Shown here piece by piece: positions 2,533 through 27,990 of a stretch of 64,000 bases of DNA; the first letter of the stretch is position 1, and every line of letters begins with the position of its first letter. A program made the translations under genes and the position numbers. The notes below the pieces were generated by a model. The model was not told where the DNA came from and ran no database searches. It was given only the letters and a program-made list of their open reading frames with translations. The DNA comes from Escherichia coli (GTDB taxonomy: Bacteria; Pseudomonadota; Gammaproteobacteria; Enterobacterales; Enterobacteriaceae), in assembly GCF_030384885.1 (NCBI RefSeq), contig NZ_CP128613.1. One strand, 5' to 3'.

Positions 2533-4785
2533 ATGGCAAAAAACACATCTTGCGGTGTCCAACTGCGTATTCGTGGCAAAGTGCAGGGCGTCGGTTTTCG
2601 TCCATTTGTCTGGCAACTGGCACAGCAATTAAATCTTCACGGCGATGTCTGTAATGACGGCGATGGCGTGGAAGTCCGGTTGCTGGAAGATCCGGAAACG
2701 TTTCTTGTTCAATTGCATCAGGATTGTCCGCCGCTGGCGCGTATTGATAGCGTCGAATGTGAGCCGTTTATCTGGATGCAGCCGCCCACTGAGTTCACCA
2801 TCCGCCAGAGCGCGGGCGGCGTCATGAATACGCAAATTGTTCCCGATGCCGCGACTTGTCCTGCCTGTCTTGCCGAAATGAATACCCCAGGCGAACGGCG
2901 TTATCGTTATCCGTTTATCAACTGTACCCACTGCGGCCCGCGTTTCACCATTATTCGCGCGATGCCTTACGACCGTCCGTTTACCGTGATGGCGGCGTTT
3001 CCGCTATGTCCGGCCTGCGATAAAGAATATCGCGACCCGCTCGATCGTCGCTTTCACGCCCAGCCGGTGGCCTGCCCGGAGTGTGGCCCACATCTTGAAT
3101 GGCTAAGTCATGGTGAACATGCGAAACAAGAGGCGGCATTACAGGCGGCTATCGCTCAGTTAAAAATGGGCAACATTGTCGCTATCAAAGGGATTGGCGG
3201 ATTTCATCTCGCCTGCGATGCGCGTAACAGTAACGCGGTGGCGACACTACGGGCGCGCAAACATCGCCCGGCGAAACCGCTGGCGGTTATGTTGCCAACG
3301 GCAGAAGGTTTGCCCGACGCTGCCCGTCAGTTGCTCACCACGCCCGCCGCGCCGATTGTACTGGTGGATAAAATATATGTTCCGGAACTTTGTGACGATA
3401 TCGCCCCTGGCCTTAACGAAGTCGGGGTGATGTTGCCTGCGAATCCGCTCCAGCATTTGCTGTTACAGGAACTGCAATGCCCGCTGGTGATGACCTCCGG
3501 CAACCTGAGCGGTAAACCACCGGCTATCAGCAACGAACAGGCGCTGGAGGACTTGCAGGACATTGCCGACGGATTCTTGATTCATAACCGCGACATCGTG
3601 CAGCGGATGGATGATTCAGTGGTGCGCGAAAGTGGCGAAATGTTGCGCCGCTCGCGGGGGTATGTACCGGATGCGCTGGCTTTGCCTCTGGGCTTTAAAA
3701 ATATTCCTCCTGTGCTGTGTCTCGGTGCGGATCTGAAAAATACCTTCTGTCTGGTGCGTGGTGAACAGGCGGTGTTGAGTCAACATTTGGGCGATTTAAG
3801 TGACGATGGCATTCAGATGCAGTGGCGCGAAGCGTTGCGCCTGATGCAAAACATCTACGATTTTACTCCACAGTTTGTGGTGCATGATGCGCATCCGGGC
3901 TATGTCTCCAGCCAGTGGGCGCGTGAAATGAATCTGCCGACGCAAACGGTGCTGCATCACCATGCCCACGCGGCGGCGTGTCTGGCAGAACATCACTGGC
4001 CGCTGGATGGCGGTGATGTCATTGCGTTGACGCTCGACGGTATTGGTATGGGGGAGAACAGCGCTTTATGGGGCGGCGAGTGCCTGCGGGTGAACTATCG
4101 CGAATGCCAGCACCTGGGCGGCTTGCCAGCGGTGGCGCTTGCTGGGGGCGATTTGGCGGCGAAGCAGCCGTGGCGTAACCTGCTGGCGCAGTGCCTGCGC
4201 TTTGTGCCGGAGTGGCAGAATTACCCTGAAACGGTAAGTGTGCAACAGCAAAACTGGAGCGTGCTGGCGCGGGCCATTGAGCGTGGAATTAACGCGCCGC
4301 TGGCGTCATCGTGTGGGCGTTTGTTCGATGCTGTGGCGGCGGCACTGGGCTGTGCGCCAGCCACGTTAAGTTATGAAGGTGAAGCGGCTTGCGCCCTTGA
4401 GGCGCTGGCGGCTTCGTGCCAGGGAGTGACGCATCCGGTGACGATGCCGCTGGTGGACAATCAACTGGATCTCGCCACTTTCTGGCAGCAGTGGCTGAAC
4501 TGGCAGGCTCCGGTTAATCAACGCGCGTGGGCATTTCATGATGCGCTGGCGCAGGGTTTTGCCGCGTTGATGCGTGAGCAGGCCACGATGCGTGGTATCA
4601 CTACGCTGGTATTTAGCGGCGGGGTTATTCATAACCGTTTGCTGCGTGCACGTCTGGCGCATTATCTTGCTGATTTTACGTTGCTCTTCCCGCAGAGTTT
4701 ACCTGCGGGGGATGGCGGGTTGTCTCTGGGGCAGGGGGTTATTGTTGCGGCCCGTTGGGTGGCGGGTGAAGTCCAGAATGGATAA
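2533..4785 (+). CDS. hypF: Carbamoyltransferase HypF, [NiFe]-hydrogenase maturation
   Basis: Track ORF 2461..4785; acylphosphatase-like N-terminus ([10 protein letters not shown]), two Zn-finger CxxC pairs, YrdC and Kae1-like domains; start refined to [15 protein letters not shown]. Confidence 0.9.
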
Positions 4786-4807
4786 ACGTGTTGCATTTGG
4801 GCGCAGT

Positions 4808-4893
4808 GCCGGATGCGGCGTGAACGCCTTATCCGGCCTACACATGCGCTCCCCGTAGGTCGGATAAGACGCGCCAGCGTCGCATCCGACATT
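4808..4893. repeat. REP/BIME-type extragenic palindromes between hypF and norW
   Basis: gccggatgcggcgtgaacgccttatccggcctac and inverted partner gtaggtcggataagacgcgccagcgtcgcatccgac read directly. Confidence 0.8.
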
Positions 4894-4911
4894 TTGGGCA
4901 CAGTAGTCCGC

Positions 4912-6045
4912 CTACATCGGCAAGGTTTTCAATAATCCAAACGCCTCTTTCATCCGATCCTCACTGACTACAAAGGCGCGAAGCTGGTCGGCATCGTCAA
5001 CGCCGCGCGCCACCATTCCCTGGCTTTCGGTACAAATCTGCCAGCGCAAATCCCGACGCTGGGTTTCCCCTGCCAGATGCAGCGGTAATTCCGGCGTTTT
5101 GATTTTCACCAGCATCGCCGGTAGTTTCAGCGGTGCGTTTCCACCGAGCAAGTTCTTCGCCAGCACCATCGCGCTAAGTTGAATCGGCTGCAGGAACGGC
5201 AATACCTGACCATTAATTTCTGCGCAATCGCCCAGCGCGTAAATATCGGCATTACTGGTTTGCAGATAACTATCGACGCAAACGCCGCGATTAATCGTCA
5301 GCCCGGCGCGTCGTGCCAGGGCGGTTTCCGGGCGCAGTCCGGTGGCGGCAATTACCGCATCCACTTCGGTGCTGCGCTGGCGGTCCAGCGTTGCCAGAAT
5401 GCCAGAATTCGTTTTTTCCAGCCCCTGCAACTGAGATTTCAACAGCAGATGAACGCCCATCTCCGTCAACCGATGCTGTAAGCGACTGCTTACTTCCGGT
5501 GGCATTAACGACGCCAGAATACTGGCAGCGTTGTCGATTAGCGTGACCGCTTTGCCTGCCCGACAAAAATCCATCGCCAGTTCGCTACCAATCAAACCAC
5601 CGCCTACAATCAACACCCGTCGGGCATCCCGCAGTTGTGTTTCACAGGCGCGATACTCTTGCTGACTATTTAACGTCAGCATTAACTCACGCCCAGGCAC
5701 CGGCGGGACAAAGGCGTTGGCACCGGTTGCCAGCACTAGCTTGTCGTATTGCCACTGATTATTCTGGCTTTTCACCACATGGGCTTCGGCATCGATATCC
5801 GTCACCCAGGTGTGCGGAAACAGGCGCAGATTAAACTGCTCGGCAAATTCACCCGCCGTCTGGCGGGTAAGGTCGTCGGCACGTTGCCCCTGACTGATCA
5901 CATGGCTAAGATCAGGTTTGTTGTACTCATCCATGCTGTCGGCGGCAATCAGGGTCAATGGAATACCGGTATCCTGTTTACGAATATTTTTCACCAGTTG
6001 GCGGGCGGCGAAGCCTGAACCAATGATCACAATGCCGTTGCTCAT
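4912..6045 (-). CDS. norW: NADH:flavorubredoxin reductase
   Basis: Track ORF 377 aa, [22 protein letters not shown] Rossmann motif; 4-nt overlap with norV. Confidence 0.9.
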
Positions 6046-7481
6046 TTTGCCTCCGATGCCAGTTCGTCAAAGACGTCTTTGCCGATGGAGCATTCCGGGC
6101 ACAGGAAGTTATCCGGGACTTCACTCCACGGCGTGCCTGGCGCAACGTCCTGCATTGGCTCGCCTTTTGCCGGATCGTAAATCCACTGGCAGACACTGCA
6201 CTGCATCCGCGGACCGAGATCAGCCGTCGTGGCGGCACAGGTTTCTTCTTTAACCACCGTATTCACCGTGCTTTGCGGCAGCGGCGAAAGCGCCCACTGA
6301 CGGGCAATTTCACGACCGTGTTCACGGCATAACTCCAGCGCGTCCTGGTCCGGTCGCCATTTGGCTTTCAGGCTAAGCGACATTTCGAAACCTGCATCCT
6401 GCAGGCGTGTGGAAAGACGATCCACCGCACCGCCGCTCCAGCCGTGAGAGCCGAAAGCACTGGCGCGTTTGTTACGGAAGCGTAATCCGGTCATCTCCTC
6501 CACCAGCCCGGCGATTTTCGGCATCATCACGTTATTCATCGTCGAAGTGCCAACCAGCACGCCTTTTGAGCGGAAGACATTGGTCAGGATTTCGTTTTTA
6601 TCGCTTCGGGCGACGTTGAAAATTTTCACCGCTACGCGCGGGTCGGTTTCCGCAATCCCCTGGGCGATAGCGTCAGCCATCATGCGGGTGTTATTCGACA
6701 TGGTGTCGTAGAAAATGGTGATTCTGTCTTCCTGATAATCCGCCGCCCATTTCAGGTACAGCTCGACAATTTGCGTCGGGTTATCGCGCCACACCACACC
6801 GTGAGAGGTGGCAATCATATCGACCGGCAAGTTAAAGCCCAGGATCTCGGTGATTTTCGGCGTTACCAGGCGGCTGAACGGTGTCAGGATATTGGCGTAG
6901 TAACGCTGGCACTGCTCGAAAAGCTCGGTCTGATCCACTTCATCGTTGAACAGATGCTCGTCGCAGTAGTGCTGACCGAAAGCATCGTTACTGAACAGCA
7001 CCGCGTCGCCCGTCAGGTAAGTCATCATGCTGTCCGGCCAGTGCAGCATTGGCGTTTCGACAAAAATGAGCTGTTTGCCGTTGCCGATATCCAGCGTGTC
7101 GCCGGTTTTCACCACGTTGAAATTCCACTCTGGATGATGGTGATGACCATTTATTGAGTCGATAGCGTTGGCAGTACAATAGATCGGCGTATCGGGAATT
7201 TGCGCCATCAGTTCGGTCAGCGCCCCGGCGTGGTCCTCTTCAGCATGGTTAATCACGATGTAATCGATATCCGCCAGATCGATTTCATTACGCAGGTTCT
7301 GCACAAATTCGCGGCTGAATTTATGGTCGACGGTGTCGATCAGCACGTTTTTTTCTTCGCGAATGAGGTAGCTGTTGTAGCTGCTGCCGCGCAGCGTTTT
7401 ATATTCTGTACCGTGAAAATCACGCACTTCCCAGTCACGTTGACCAACCCAATGAATGTTATTTTTCACCACAATAGACAT
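6042..7481 (-). CDS. norV: Anaerobic nitric oxide reductase flavorubredoxin
   Basis: Track ORF 479 aa; metallo-beta-lactamase-like and flavodoxin domains with C-terminal rubredoxin CxxC...CPxC. Confidence 0.9.
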
Positions 7482-7528
7482 AGCAACCTCAATTTATTCA
7501 GCGTGTTCTAAAAAGATGTCTTGTTAAT

Positions 7529-7544
7529 TGCAGATTGCGTGCCA
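7529..7544 (-). promoter_or_regulatory. Sigma-54 (-24/-12) promoter of norVW
   Basis: Reverse complement reads TGGCAC-gcaat-cTGCA, matching the GG-N10-GC sigma-54 consensus upstream of norV. Confidence 0.75.
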
Positions 7545-7599
7545 GTTTTTTATCTAATTGTTTTTAATATATAAATTAATTTATGCTCATTAATGAGTA

Positions 7600-7655
7600 G
7601 TCAAAATGACTATCAATCAAATGGTCGATATGACAATATCTATAGTCAAATTGAC
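7600..7655. promoter_or_regulatory. Three NorR enhancer-binding sites (GT-N7-AC)
   Basis: gtcaaaatgac (7600..7610), gtcgatatgac (7624..7634), gtcaaattgac (7645..7655) in the norR-norV divergent intergenic region. Confidence 0.8.
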
Positions 7656-7667
7656 AGTGAGGCAAAG

Positions 7668-9182
7668 ATGAGTTTTTCCGTTGATGTGCTGGCGAATATC
7701 GCCATCGAATTGCAGCGTGGGATTGGTCATCAGGATCGTTTTCAGCGCCTGATCACCACGTTGCGTCAGGTGCTGGAGTGCGATGCGTCTGCGTTGCTAC
7801 GTTACGACTCGCGGCAGTTTATTCCGCTTGCCATCGACGGACTGGCGAAGGATGTACTCGGTAGACGCTTTGCCCTGGAAGGGCATCCGCGGCTGGAAGC
7901 GATAGCCCGCGCCGGGGACGTGGTGCGTTTTCCCGCAGACAGCGAATTGCCCGATCCCTATGACGGTTTGATTCCAGGGCAGGAGAGTCTGAAGGTTCAC
8001 GCCTGCGTTGGTCTGCCGTTATTTGCCGGACAAAACCTGATCGGTGCATTGACACTCGACGGGATGCAGCCCGATCAGTTCGATGTTTTCAGCGACGAAG
8101 AGTTACGGCTGATTGCCGCGCTGGCGGCGGGAGCGTTAAGCAATGCGTTGCTGATTGAACAGCTGGAAAGTCAGAATATGCTGCCGGGCGATGCCGCGCC
8201 GTTTGAAGCGCTGAAAGAGACGCAGATGATCGGCCTGTCGCCAGGCATGACGCAATTGAAAAAAGAGATTGAGATTGTGGCGGCGTCCGATCTCAACGTC
8301 CTAATCAGTGGTGAGACGGGAACGGGTAAGGAGCTGGTGGCGAAAGCGATTCATGAAGCCTCGCCACGGGCGGTGAATCCGTTAGTCTATCTCAACTGTG
8401 CCGCACTGCCGGAAAGTGTGGCGGAAAGTGAGTTGTTTGGGCATGTGAAAGGGGCGTTTACTGGCGCTATCAGTAACCGCAGTGGGAAGTTTGAAATGGC
8501 GGATAACGGCACGCTGTTTCTGGATGAGATCGGCGAGTTGTCGTTGGCATTGCAGGCCAAGCTGCTGAGGGTATTGCAGTATGGCGATATTCAGCGCGTT
8601 GGCGATGACCGTAGTTTGCGGGTCGATGTGCGCGTGCTGGCGGCGACTAACCGCGACTTGCGCGAAGAGGTGCTGGCAGGGCGATTTCGTGCCGACTTGT
8701 TTCATCGCCTGAGTGTGTTTCCGCTTTCGGTGCCGCCGCTGCGTGAGCGGGGTGATGACGTCATTCTGCTGGCGGGGTATTACTGCGAACAGTGCCGCCT
8801 GCGGTTGGGGCTTTCCCGCGTGGTGTTAAGTTCCGGGGCGCGGAATTTATTGCAACATTATAGTTTTCCGGGAAACGTGCGTGAACTGGAACATGCTATT
8901 CACCGGGCGGTAGTGCTGGCGAGAGCGACCCGCAGCGGCGATGAAGTGATTCTTGAGGCGCAACATTTTGCTTTTCCTGAGGTGACGTTGCCGCCGCCAG
9001 AAGCGGCGGCGGTGCCTATTGTTAAGCAAAACCTGCGTGAAGCGACAGAAGCGTTCCAGCGTAAAACCATTCGCCAGGCACTGGCACAAAATCATCACAA
9101 CTGGGCTGCCAGCGCACGGATGCTGGAAACCGACGTCGCCAACTTGCATCGGTTGGCGAAACGTCTGGGGCTGAAAGATTAA
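7668..9182 (+). CDS. norR: Sigma-54-dependent NO-responsive transcriptional activator
   Basis: Track ORF 7593..9182; GAF domain, AAA+ sigma-54 activator domain (GETGTGKE Walker A, GAFTGA motif), C-terminal HTH; start refined to [14 protein letters not shown]. Confidence 0.9.
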
Positions 9183-10144
9183 ATAATCCCGGCCTGATAG
9201 AAATCCTGCAGGTTAATCGCGCCGACGAGTTTGCCGTTTTCATCTACCACCGGTGCGGCGGTGATTTTGCGTTTCATCAGAACTTCTTTGGCGTCGATGG
9301 CGCGGCTTTGCGCCTGTAATGTGGTGCCGCCTGTCGTCATCGCTTCATTAACTGGCGTGGTGAGTGCGCCGCCGCCAACCAGCCAGCGACGTAAATCCCC
9401 GTCGGTAAAGACGCCTTTCACCAGCCGTTGATCGTCGCACACGGCTACCAGTCCCAGACCGGTGCGACTAAGTTCCAGCATCGCATCCATCACGCTGGCG
9501 GTTAACGCCACCTGCGGGATGGCGTCATCACGGCGCATCAGATGATGCACTTTGTTCAGCAAGCGAGCGCCCAGAGCCCCAGCTGGGTGGGAGCGGGCAA
9601 AATCTTCTTCATTAAATCCGCGCGCCTGCATGACCGCCATCGCCAGCGCGTCGCCCATCATCAGGGTATTGACGGTGCTGGAGGTCGGCGCAAGATGCAT
9701 CGGGCAGGCTTCGCGTTCTACAGAGATATCCAGCACCGCTTTCGCCGCCAGGCCCAGCGGTGATGTCGGTTTACCGGTCATCGCCAGCAGCGCGATAGAT
9801 TTGTCTTCTAGACGCGGAATAATCAGATCCAGTTCCTTTGCGCCACCGGAGTAAGAGATAAACAGCATCACATCGCGGCTTTCAATCATCCCCAGATCGC
9901 CGTGCAGTGCTTCTGCCGGATGGACAAAAAAAGCAGGCGTGCCGGTACTGGCAAGCGTTGCGGCGATTTTCTTACCAATGTGGCCCGATTTGCCAATTCC
10001 CGAAACCACCACTTTGCCTTCGCAGTGCAGGATGATATTGGCGGCGCGAACAAAATCATCGCCCAGACGTTCTGGTAAACGGCTTGCTTCCTGCAACTCC
10101 AGCATTAACGTCTGACGTCCCGCGTTCAGTAGTGCTTCACTCAT
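9179..10144 (-). CDS. gutQ: D-arabinose-5-phosphate isomerase (SIS plus tandem CBS domains)
   Basis: Track ORF 321 aa; SIS motif [13 protein letters not shown]; position after srlR. Confidence 0.85.
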
Positions 10145-25216: not shown

Positions 25217-25290
25217 GAAAAAGGCCACTCGTGAGTGGCCAAAATTTCATCTCTGAATTCAGGGATGATGATAACAAATGCGCGTCTTTC
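25217..25290 (-). ncRNA. micA: MicA (SraD) small regulatory RNA
   Basis: Minus-strand reading gaaagacgcgcatttgttatcatcatccctgaattcagagatgaaattttggccactcacgagtggcctttttc matches the MicA sequence I recall, ending in a ggccactcacgagtggcc hairpin plus U-run; lies between gshA and luxS. Confidence 0.8.
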
Positions 25291-25874: not shown

Positions 25875-25887
25875 TCAATTGAAGAGG

Positions 25888-25918
25888 CCGGGCAGGTGAT
25901 ATCACCGCCCGGTTTTTA
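25888..25918 (+). terminator. Intrinsic terminator of luxS
   Basis: ccgggcaggtgat/atcaccgcccgg stem followed by tttttatt; the stop codon of the convergent minus-strand gene lies inside the T-tract. Confidence 0.75.
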
Positions 25919-27031
25919 TTACCTGTCAGTCACCCGATATTCCACGCTATGTGCTTCATCAGGTTGAGGAACTTCCAGCCTTGAGGCCATCCGCATCACG
26001 ACCGCTTCAGGAACGGCATACTCGCGCCTGGCATTTTGCTGCTTCCATTGCGCCCATGGCACTTCCAGATAAACGATTTTTACTCGTGCGCCGTAAGCCG
26101 TAAACAGACTGATGAGCTGGCTACGCAGTTGGCGGGTAATGTTCGTTGCATTCCAGATGAACGGCTTTTTCTGGCGTAAAAAAACGCGCGCCTCTTCTTT
26201 TGCCTGTTGCACAATACGCCCGGTCGCGGTTTTGTCGTCCGGGCTGGCATTGATTCGCCGCCGCATATCATCAAGGCTGATAACGTCCATTCCCTGGCAC
26301 TGTTCACTGATATAGCGATCTTTGCCCATACCCGGTAAGCCACACAGCAAAATGACCTCAAAAGGTTCAGCCTCCCAGGGAACAAAATCAGGAGAACTTT
26401 GTTCATGGGTCAGATAATGCCAGCGTGCGGAATCAGACACGAACGAGCGCACTTTTCCCCAACACTGTTGCTCCTGGCAAAATAGCTCGAACAGATCGAT
26501 GCGTTCCAGCATTGATTGCTGATCATGACAATGGCGACCAAGCAGATCGGCACGAGCAAGCAAAGCGAGCAGACGCGTGTCGATACGCATTGCAGCCGTG
26601 AGCAGCAAACGCTCCGGTTCCGGACGTTCTAGTAACCATAGCGGTAACCCATGCAGACGCACCAGTGCAACAATTTGCTCGCGTAGCACGAACGGCGTCG
26701 GGATATCGCGCCATAAAATTTGTCGGGCCGTCAATTCACCCCGACGAGCATGACCAGGAGACTGAATACGTCCGTTTTCCTGCACGGTAGTACTGCGCTT
26801 TTCAACGTCATGCAATAACGCCGCCGCCCATAAAATTTCCTGCTGCTGAGCGGGGAGTTGCTGGAACTCTGGCAGAGCCACGAGTGCATTCAGCACCATT
26901 TCAGTATGCACACCAACGTCGCCTTCACCATGATGCTCCGGGTCTTGCGGCGTATTATGCATATCCTCAACCCAGCTAAAACGCTGGCGTAGCGTCGACC
27001 AGCGTTTGTCGTCGGTAAGTTGCCAAATCAT
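25919..27031 (-). CDS. HD phosphohydrolase fused to a P-loop polynucleotide-kinase-like domain (HD-Pnk-like end-healing enzyme)
   Basis: Track ORF 370 aa: N-terminal HD signature ([10 protein letters not shown] ... LLHDVEK); C-terminal P-loop CGLPGMGKD followed by DDMRRR, the Asp/Arg arrangement seen in T4 Pnk-type 5'-OH kinases; ATGA overlap with the upstream ligase-like gene. Confidence 0.6.
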
Positions 27032-27735
27032 GACTGTTCTCCATAAGCGAACTCATGGGCCATCCGCGCCCGTCGCCAGTGGCGTTTCCAGTGCTCGGTG
27101 GTTTTGACATGATTTTTGCGTACATACTTGAAGACGTTATGCGAAAAGTCAGCGACGGAAAACGCATCACTATTCCGGCTGACAATGCCTTCCAGCGTAC
27201 AGGGTTGTCCGGTTTGCGTATCCCAGGGATCGAACGCACCGCGCGCATTGGTCAGCGCCAGAAAATCACGTTGCCAGCTTTTTTCATCATTCCCCGGCTG
27301 CGGGCCGGAGATTTCGGGAACGCAGGGGAAATCAAACAGAGCGGCGTAAAACTGCACCTCTTCCCAGCTCAGCCACATATCCTGGCAGCGAACGGCAAAC
27401 AGATAAAAATCCTGCTCCAGGGCGCGATATTCAATCGAATGAACGGCATAAAGATTTTCACCAAACAACTCCAGATCGCCGAGATCGTTTTTCAGCAGTT
27501 GCCAGCGTTGGCGAATTTTATAGGTCCATGCCGATTGTGTAGGCGCGGCATGGGAACGGGCAAACACGCCGTAGCGGTTAAGGCAGTTATTTTCACCGTC
27601 GAGTTTTTCAGTATGTACCAACTGCGAAATTGCCTGCATATCTTGCCAGTAACTGGCGTTAATGCGGTCATCGCTGGTGGTGCCAGGGGAGAAGGGGTAA
27701 TGCCAGGTTCTCCCGTATTTACGTTGGGTATTCAT
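27028..27735 (-). CDS. ATP-dependent RNA/polynucleotide ligase-like nucleotidyltransferase, Rnl2-like motif I
   Basis: Track ORF 235 aa: motif I TEKLDGEN (K-x-D-G-x-N), then [12 protein letters not shown] (motif III-like), EGIVSRN (motif IV-like), [10 protein letters not shown] (motif V-like) in canonical order. Confidence 0.6.
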
Positions 27736-27951
27736 AATAATCCATTATTTTTTGTGTAATAAACGTACGCCCGCGAGGGTGCGAGTTATGGGGTTAAAAA
27801 AAATGTGAGTATCACCCGCGAAAGCGAGGGCGAAGAAAAAAGAGAATTAACAACCTGAGCGAATGCTCAGAACCGGTTAATGGTGAATGGAAGAGTTTGG
27901 AGCGGCGAAAAGATACACCGTTTGAGATGATAAAACAACCGTTTACAGAAT

Positions 27952-27982
27952 GAGCAAATAAAAAGGGAGCCGCAGCTCCCTT
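27952..27982 (-). terminator. Intrinsic terminator of emrB
   Basis: On the minus strand, gggagctgcggctccc hairpin followed by a U-run (plus strand aaataaaaagggagccgcagctccc). Confidence 0.7.
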
Positions 27983-27990
27983 TAACAACC

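Follow-up and report, generated by a model that had tools for sequence, protein, structure and literature searches.

A probable HD-Pnk end-healing enzyme encoded beside an RNA-ligase-like protein at the luxS-emrB site of Escherichia coli

We analysed a stretch of 64,000 nucleotides (hereafter, the window) from the Escherichia coli contig NZ_CP128613.1 (assembly GCF_030384885.1), and in particular a protein of 370 amino acids (aa) that is encoded between luxS and emrB. This protein is very probably an HD-Pnk, the E. coli orthologue of a bifunctional enzyme that heals nucleic-acid ends, in what appears from homology to be a two-gene 'heal-and-seal' cassette. HD-Pnk enzymes are said to have been described by Schmier and Shuman in 2018 (DR_B0098 of Deinococcus radiodurans) and by Munir and Shuman in 2017 (Runella slithyformis HD-Pnk). 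The family and its domain logic have thus already been published, between 2007 and 2018, and the E. coli protein is an uncharacterised member. A preliminary description of the same DNA had reported an HD-kinase fusion at this place without giving a strand; it is confirmed as a single long open reading frame (ORF), and lies on the minus strand (Table 1). The motifs quoted in that description are likewise found in the translation: its 10-residue HD string corresponds to residues 33-42, LLHDVEK to 72-78, CGLPGMGKD to 230-238 and DDMRRR to 254-259.

The kinase domain is readily recognised, with a match to Pfam AAA_33 at residues 226-355 (E = 7e-32). The Pfam HD model matches the E. coli sequence alone only weakly (E = 0.014). 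However, the same model (PF01966) matches 89 of 103 family members at E<=0.001, which makes the HD assignment secure for the family as a whole despite the weak single-sequence score. A protein search found homologues in more than 2,265 database clusters, while an exhaustive search found 581 clusters at 50% identity that have E<1e-30 and the same two-domain architecture; nearly all clusters listed in the latter are 355-420 aa long and align end to end. A structural model from AlphaFold2 (AF2), built on 103 homologues, has a pLDDT of 97.5 and a pTM of 0.94.

We aligned the E. coli protein with 140 family representatives, and counts out of 141 refer to this alignment. Near-invariant positions on the HD side are H34, H42, H74-D75, K78, H94, H127, D162 and G165-R166, and those on the kinase side are G231, G236-K237, D254, R257, N333 and R336. 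The His/Asp set of the HD domain is kept in 139-141 sequences. The preliminary description had proposed that domain models and an alignment be used to look for the HD His/Asp residues and for the Lys, Asp and Arg typical of polynucleotide kinases; all are present, and they are conserved in 135-141 of the 141 sequences. Given this conservation, the number of homologues and the strength of the AAA_33 match, the pattern of motifs is not due to chance.

By sequence, profile and fold, the nearest solved structures of the kinase domain are the kinase of CthPnkp, T4 Pnk, PSTK, mammalian PNKP and Pnkp1, and the fold neighbours of the AF2 model, which again comprise Pnkp1 and mammalian PNKP, also include fungal Trl1-type RNA kinases. 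In an alignment with T4 Pnk, whose sequence was checked against PDB 1ly1, residues K237, D254, R257 and R336 correspond to T4 K15, D35, R38 and R126, respectively, while D238 corresponds to S16 and N294 to D85. HMMER aligns K237/D238/D254/R257 with CthPnkp K21/S22/D38/R41. The E. coli protein thus differs from T4 Pnk and CthPnkp in that an Asp, not a Ser, follows the P-loop Lys, and it has Asn at the position of T4 D85. The spacing of the D-x-x-R motif is identical in all three enzymes, which upholds the earlier suggestion of a Pnk-like Asp/Arg arrangement. The distance from the P-loop Lys to this Asp, however, had been put at about 16 residues and likened to that of T4 Pnk. It is in fact 17 residues (K237 to D254), as in CthPnkp (K21 to D38), whereas it is 20 in T4 Pnk (K15 to D35).

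It is possible to interpret the C-terminal domain differently, namely as an enzyme that phosphorylates a tRNA-linked amino acid, in the manner of PSTK, or a small molecule, in the manner of PFK2, gluconate kinase or Zeta toxin. We consider this to be very unlikely. When the family profile is compared with solved structures, the E-value for PSTK is 5e-18, versus 2e-15 for CthPnkp and 2e-12 for T4 Pnk; the PSTK model TIGR03574 gives the E. coli protein a score of 26.6 versus a cut-off of 290.5. All matches to NCBIfam models are below threshold, and are to PSTK, to the kinase part of Pnkp, to the HD region of CCA addition/repair enzymes and to HDIG. The bacterial Pnkp model, TIGR04075, scores 32.9 versus a cut-off of 750, and only its kinase region is matched (model positions 9-137 of 851).

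Outside the kinase domain, the protein differs from T4 Pnk, CthPnkp and the CCA-adding/repair enzymes. T4 Pnk has a C-terminal HAD phosphatase, whereas the E. coli protein has an N-terminal HD domain; a HAD/DxDxT acylphosphatase domain is absent from it, and matches to T4 Pnk span residues 226-348 only. CthPnkp contains a binuclear metallophosphoesterase and a fused ligase domain, neither of which is fused to the E. coli protein. The HD domain most similar to that of HD-Pnk belongs to the CCA-adding/repair enzymes, i.e., E. coli Cca and PDB entries 3wfo-3wfs ('Poly A polymerase / tRNA processing enzyme'). However, the E. coli HD-Pnk lacks their nucleotidyltransferase head and has its HD domain fused to a kinase, and the E. 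coli Cca model PRK10885 gives a score of 22 versus a cut-off of 451. The order of HD domain and kinase, unlike that of T4 Pnk or bacterial Pnkp, had been read as a sign of an independently assembled end-healing enzyme. Our analysis supports this view, although it is already in the literature: the 'unusual domain architecture' of DR_B0098 was remarked upon by Blasius et al. in 2007 (PMC1997131).

DR_B0098 is encoded on the D. radiodurans megaplasmid MP1 (PMC6300522), and is the characterised member with which we compared the E. coli protein. It is 29% identical to the E. coli protein (E = 3e-31) over residues 5-361, i.e., over the full length. Both proteins consist of an N-terminal HD domain and a C-terminal P-loop Pnk domain (370 aa in E. 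coli versus 413 aa), and they share the catalytic Lys/Asp/Arg/Arg as well as the HD ligands. They differ in that Deinococcus has GSGKS and WD-ATT where E. coli has GMGKD and WN-ATN. DR_B0098 was demonstrated to have 5'-OH kinase activity on a 5'-OH DNA 25-mer, and this activity was abolished in an R371K mutant (PMC1997131). We observed that R371, the residue that Blasius et al. mutated as the counterpart of T4 R126, lies opposite T4 R122 and E. coli Q332, a position at which 77 of the 141 family members have Arg and 51 have Gln. T4 R126 aligns instead with DR_B0098 R375 (E. coli R336).

The preliminary description had called the G-K-D sequence of the P-loop atypical. The Asp after the Lys is indeed present, but it is the norm within the HD-Pnk family: 111 of the 141 sequences have Asp next to the P-loop Lys, the others having Ser (20), Asn (5), Thr (3) or Glu (2). 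A further set of 82 genome loci spans Bacteroidota, Gammaproteobacteria, Cyanobacteria, Bacillota, Actinomycetota, Myxococcota and Acidobacteriota; of these loci, 77 have Asp at this position and 4 have Asn, and the single Ser is that of D. radiodurans. The Walker-B-like position is Asn (N294) in E. coli, but Asp in T4 Pnk (D85), CthPnkp ('VDATN') and Deinococcus. These two positions vary together. Among the 141 sequences, Asp at position 238 is accompanied by Asn at 294 in 108 of 111 cases and never by Asp, while Ser or Thr at 238 is accompanied by Asp at 294 in 17 of 23 cases. By mutual information, no other position comes close to 294 as a partner of position 238 (0.377, versus 0.184 for the second). 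The forms with Ser or Thr and Asp are scattered over a neighbour-joining tree that requires approximately 20 parsimony changes for each character, and these changes largely coincide. As an independent set, 32 homologues on viral contigs exhibit the 238/294 pairs D/N (18), S/D (8), T/D (1), N/N (2) and D/S (1), and none has D/D or S/N. From this covariation, we infer that the carboxylate that handles the metal has, it seems, moved from the Walker B to the Walker A site.

The same substitution could instead mean that the Ser-to-Asp change in Walker A has destroyed the kinase, so that the domain is a nucleotide-binding pseudo-kinase, or that decay of the gene is under way in E. coli. S16 of T4 Pnk is reportedly essential, according to Wang and Shuman, and truncated E. 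coli variants do occur in the protein search, as clusters of 245-341 aa that come mostly from short contigs. However, GKD is the majority form across phyla, and the coupled change to Asn at position 294 recurs on many branches as well as in the viral set. Moreover, all other catalytic residues are kept, and all 999 matches in complete E. coli genomes are full-length. When two E. coli alleles are compared, the ratio of nonsynonymous to synonymous substitution rates (dN/dS) amounts to 0.09 for HD-Pnk and to 0.07 for its ligase partner, which indicates purifying selection on the cassette; one luxS control, being out of frame, was left out of account. In view of this evidence, a dead kinase or a decaying gene is extremely improbable.

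Directly upstream of the HD-Pnk gene is an ORF for an RNA-ligase-like protein, whose stop codon overlaps the HD-Pnk start by 4 nt (ATGA). This protein has the adenylyltransferase fold, the motif I Lys and motifs III, IV and V. T4 Rnl2 and the Naegleria-Deinococcus Rnl5 enzymes have an accessory domain for nick sealing, whereas the E. coli ligase has neither a C-terminal (Rnl2) nor an N-terminal (Rnl5) one, its 235 aa amounting to the adenylyltransferase domain alone. Its closest fold neighbours are T4 Rnl2, Naegleria Rnl, archaeal Rnl3 and REL1, and DNA ligases score lower. It is 36% identical to D. radiodurans DR_B0100 (LigB/DdrP), and its K44 aligns with K40 of that protein, through which DR_B0100 forms the enzyme-AMP intermediate; a K40A mutant cannot do so. 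The only matches of the ligase in a phmmer search of PDB sequences were to molluscan hemocyanins (E down to 3e-9), and were discarded as spurious, as they consist of many weak repeated segments.

A homologous ligase is encoded directly upstream and on the same strand in 45 of the 82 genome loci and, within the clade nearest to E. coli, in 31 of 32. In two loci, the ligase homologue has an in-frame stop inside the aligned region (Budvicia aquatica, approximately positions 5309-5977 of the locus, and Fibrisoma limi, approximately 5306-5989), which may reflect a pseudogene or a sequencing error. A putative ligase ORF also lies directly upstream of, and overlaps, the Runella HD-Pnk ORF, according to the summary of Munir and Shuman (2017) given in PMC6097658, and the arrangement in E. 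coli resembles it. Runella is not named among the top 120 hits of any of three protein searches, seeded with E. coli, Adhaeribacter and Fibrisoma sequences, nor does it appear in 80 genome loci. However, the E. coli operon is a minimal one with two genes, lacking both the PARG gene of Deinococcus and the Tpt1 and MTase-HIT genes of the Runella cluster.

These comparisons are compatible with the following mechanism. The HD domain, with a transition metal held by its His/Asp set, would open 2',3'-cyclic phosphates and remove 2'- or 3'-phosphates, so that a 3'-OH remains. The P-loop domain at the C-terminus would transfer the gamma-phosphate of a nucleoside triphosphate (NTP) to a 5'-OH end. In this reaction, the beta and gamma phosphates would be held by K237 and the general base would be D254, and two Arg, R257 and R336, would serve to stabilise the transition state and to bind the terminal nucleotide. 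The carboxylate that handles Mg2+ would be on Walker A (D238), with Asn at N294, replacing the classical Ser/Thr and Asp. HD-Pnk, presumably coupled translationally to the Rnl2-like ligase and its K44 by the ATGA overlap, would form with it a two-gene cassette that heals and seals.

The natural substrate of this cassette is more likely RNA that has been cut by ribotoxins or by nucleases deployed in phage conflicts, while DNA breaks are possible. Under the DNA hypothesis, the cassette would repair breaks with 3'-phosphate and 5'-OH ends, such as arise from oxidation, radiation or bleomycin-type agents, as is envisaged for the LIG-PARG-HD-Pnk cluster of Deinococcus. The D. radiodurans operon is induced by radiation, and DR_B0098 mutants are sensitive to ionizing radiation (PMC6300522). 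In addition, the DR_B0098 kinase accepts DNA, as mentioned above, and the domain logic is similar to that of mammalian PNKP, one of the structural neighbours. On the other hand, the partner ligase is structurally nearest to RNA ligases, and the HD domain is nearest to that of the CCA-adding/repair enzymes, whose site of action is the tRNA 3' end. Further, the cassette recurs in contigs of jumbo phages, and the Runella cluster is summarised as including the RNA 2'-phosphotransferase Tpt1 (PMC6097658). On balance, we regard DNA repair as a possible, if somewhat unlikely, role.

The phage relatives consist of several groups. In PHROGs, the protein matches a full-length family whose function is not annotated (phrog_6931, E = 2e-16), and also a 'polynucleotide kinase' family. 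Among GenBank phages, there is one full-length HD-Pnk homologue, in the 462-kb uncultured phage LR756500.1 (locus 4856-7059); it is separated by a 2-nt gap from a preceding ORF that encodes a ligase with an HNH-nuclease-like N-terminal extension. The 32 viral-contig homologues mentioned above are full-length and come from IMG/VR; many of their contigs exceed 100 kb, and a ligase is found within 3 kb in 20 of them. We also observed that, in approximately 20 IMG/VR contigs, the HD domain (residues ~12-187) has homologues that stand alone, with no kinase attached. By analogy with T4 Pnk and Rnl1, the occurrence of HD-Pnk with a ligase in phages favours, without proving, an RNA-repair role in such conflicts. 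A more elaborate proposal is that GKD with Asn is a distinct, repeatedly interconverted design of the Mg2+ site that perhaps alters the preference for metal or NTP, and that the cassette is a mobile RNA-repair module which, in the carrier E. coli lineages and in jumbo phages, undoes the damage of toxins that cleave tRNA or rRNA, for example colicins, anticodon nucleases and toxin-antitoxin RNases. In that reading, the ligase would act only on structured RNA that HD-Pnk has healed. We put this proposal forward tentatively, and consider it unlikely as a whole.

It is important to consider the evidence that weighs against our identification of the protein as an end-healing HD-Pnk in a heal-and-seal cassette. 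The activities of the E. coli protein itself are predicted from homology, and the characterised Deinococcus enzyme has GKS instead of GKD. HD-dependent activity has reportedly been found by Munir and Shuman (2017) and by Schmier and Shuman (2018). In the earlier work on DR_B0098, 3'-phosphatase activity was not attributable to the HD motif, in that H81A and D82E had no effect and there was background activity (PMC1997131). Both studied homologues of the ligase adenylylate themselves but seal no standard DNA or RNA nicks, in accounts that include the summary in PMC6097658, and the 'seal' step of the E. coli cassette is thus a conjecture. There is no convincing sigma-70 promoter in the spacer upstream of the ligase. 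Finally, neither the HD-Pnk nor the ligase protein matches a PADLOC 2.0 model of known anti-phage systems. Despite these caveats, the identification remains very probable.

The cassette is an accessory island. A strain with an empty site has a luxS-emrB spacer of approximately 59 bp in place of the 2.1-kb cassette, and its homology to the window is lost immediately past the stop codon of luxS (25876) and regained at that of emrB (27989). HD-Pnk is full-length, single-copy and chromosomal in 999 of 5426 complete E. coli genomes (~18%), always at the luxS-emrB site. Carriers include O25b:H4-ST131, O2:K1:H7 avian pathogenic E. coli (APEC), O127:H6 and 'clone D i14' strains, from which the carrier lineages look like extraintestinal pathogenic E. 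coli (ExPEC) of phylogroup B2. The allele in the strain of the window is divergent, being approximately 95% identical to the common E. coli allele. The GC content of the cassette matches that of the flanking sequence, and bears no mark of recent foreign origin. Enterobacter sp. BIGb0383 has the same gene order, emrB-ligase-HD-Pnk-luxS-gshA (locus 3475-9432). Its HD-Pnk is 72% identical to that of E. coli, compared with 87-92% for the flanking proteins, so the cassette is either old at this site or evolving faster than its flanks. Homologues in Bacteroidota are 55-60% identical to the E. coli protein, which suggests an old transfer of HD-Pnk between phyla.

Table 1. Positions of the HD-Pnk cassette and its features in the window
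Feature	Position	Strand	Remarks
HD-Pnk ORF, 370 aa	25919..27031	minus	WP_000638149.1; annotated 'ATP-binding protein' or 'AAA family ATPase'
HD phosphoesterase domain, residues ~25-215	26387..26959	minus	Candidate metal ligands H34, H74-D75, D162; further conserved residues H42, H94, H127, K78, R166
P-loop kinase domain (predicted 5'-OH polynucleotide kinase), residues 222-365	25937..26368	minus	
Walker A, G231-L-P-G-M-G-K237-D238	26318..26341	minus	Asp for Ser/Thr; from translation
D254-D-M-R257	26261..26272	minus	Predicted general base Asp and phosphate-contacting Arg; each in 138/141
F-I-W-N294-A-T-N, Walker-B-like	26141..26161	minus	End of strand 291-294; from alignment and AF2
N333-A-R-R336	26024..26035	minus	R336 (T4 Pnk R126) in 135/141
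Adenylyltransferase-only RNA-ligase-like ORF, 235 aa	27028..27735	minus	WP_001097123.1; 'RNA ligase family protein'
Ligase motif I, E-K44-L-D-G	27595..27609	minus	Predicted adenylylated Lys; invariant in 18 homologues
Whole accessory cassette, 2.1 kb	25877..27988		Homology to empty-site strain ends at 25876 and restarts at 27989
Upstream spacer	27736..27990	minus	emrB terminator hairpin (27962-27983) and conserved inverted repeat (about 27854-27880)

The spacer upstream of the ligase contains an inverted repeat, TTAACCGGTTCTGAG-CATTCGCTCAGGTT, at about 27850-27882, which places it approximately 115-145 nt before the ATG of the ligase (27735). This repeat is common to E. coli and Enterobacter sp. 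BIGb0383, in which the emrB-ligase spacer is otherwise diverged, and is absent upstream of the ligase in the other genera compared. Its role could be that of an operator, an attenuator or an RNA hairpin. The spacer gave no match of the sigma-54 or sigma-32 type. A candidate LexA box (CTG-N10-CAG upstream of the ligase) was rejected, as it is no more than a perfect hairpin in a GC-rich spacer. In an Rfam scan near the cassette, the sole match was the small RNA MicA (RF00078, 83.9 bits), which is outside the cassette, in the gshA-luxS spacer (25219-25290, minus strand), as expected for E. coli.

Laboratory strains of E. coli have been stated to have no polynucleotide kinase (PMC1997131). Our analysis shows that genes for a probable 5'-kinase/3'-phosphoesterase and a ligase are present in approximately 18% of complete genomes of the species, and these carriers provide a genetically tractable host in which to seek the natural substrate of HD-Pnk and its ligase. 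The coupled exchange of Asp in Walker A and Asn in Walker B presents a clean hypothesis for the enzymology of P-loop proteins, and one that can be tested by mutagenesis.
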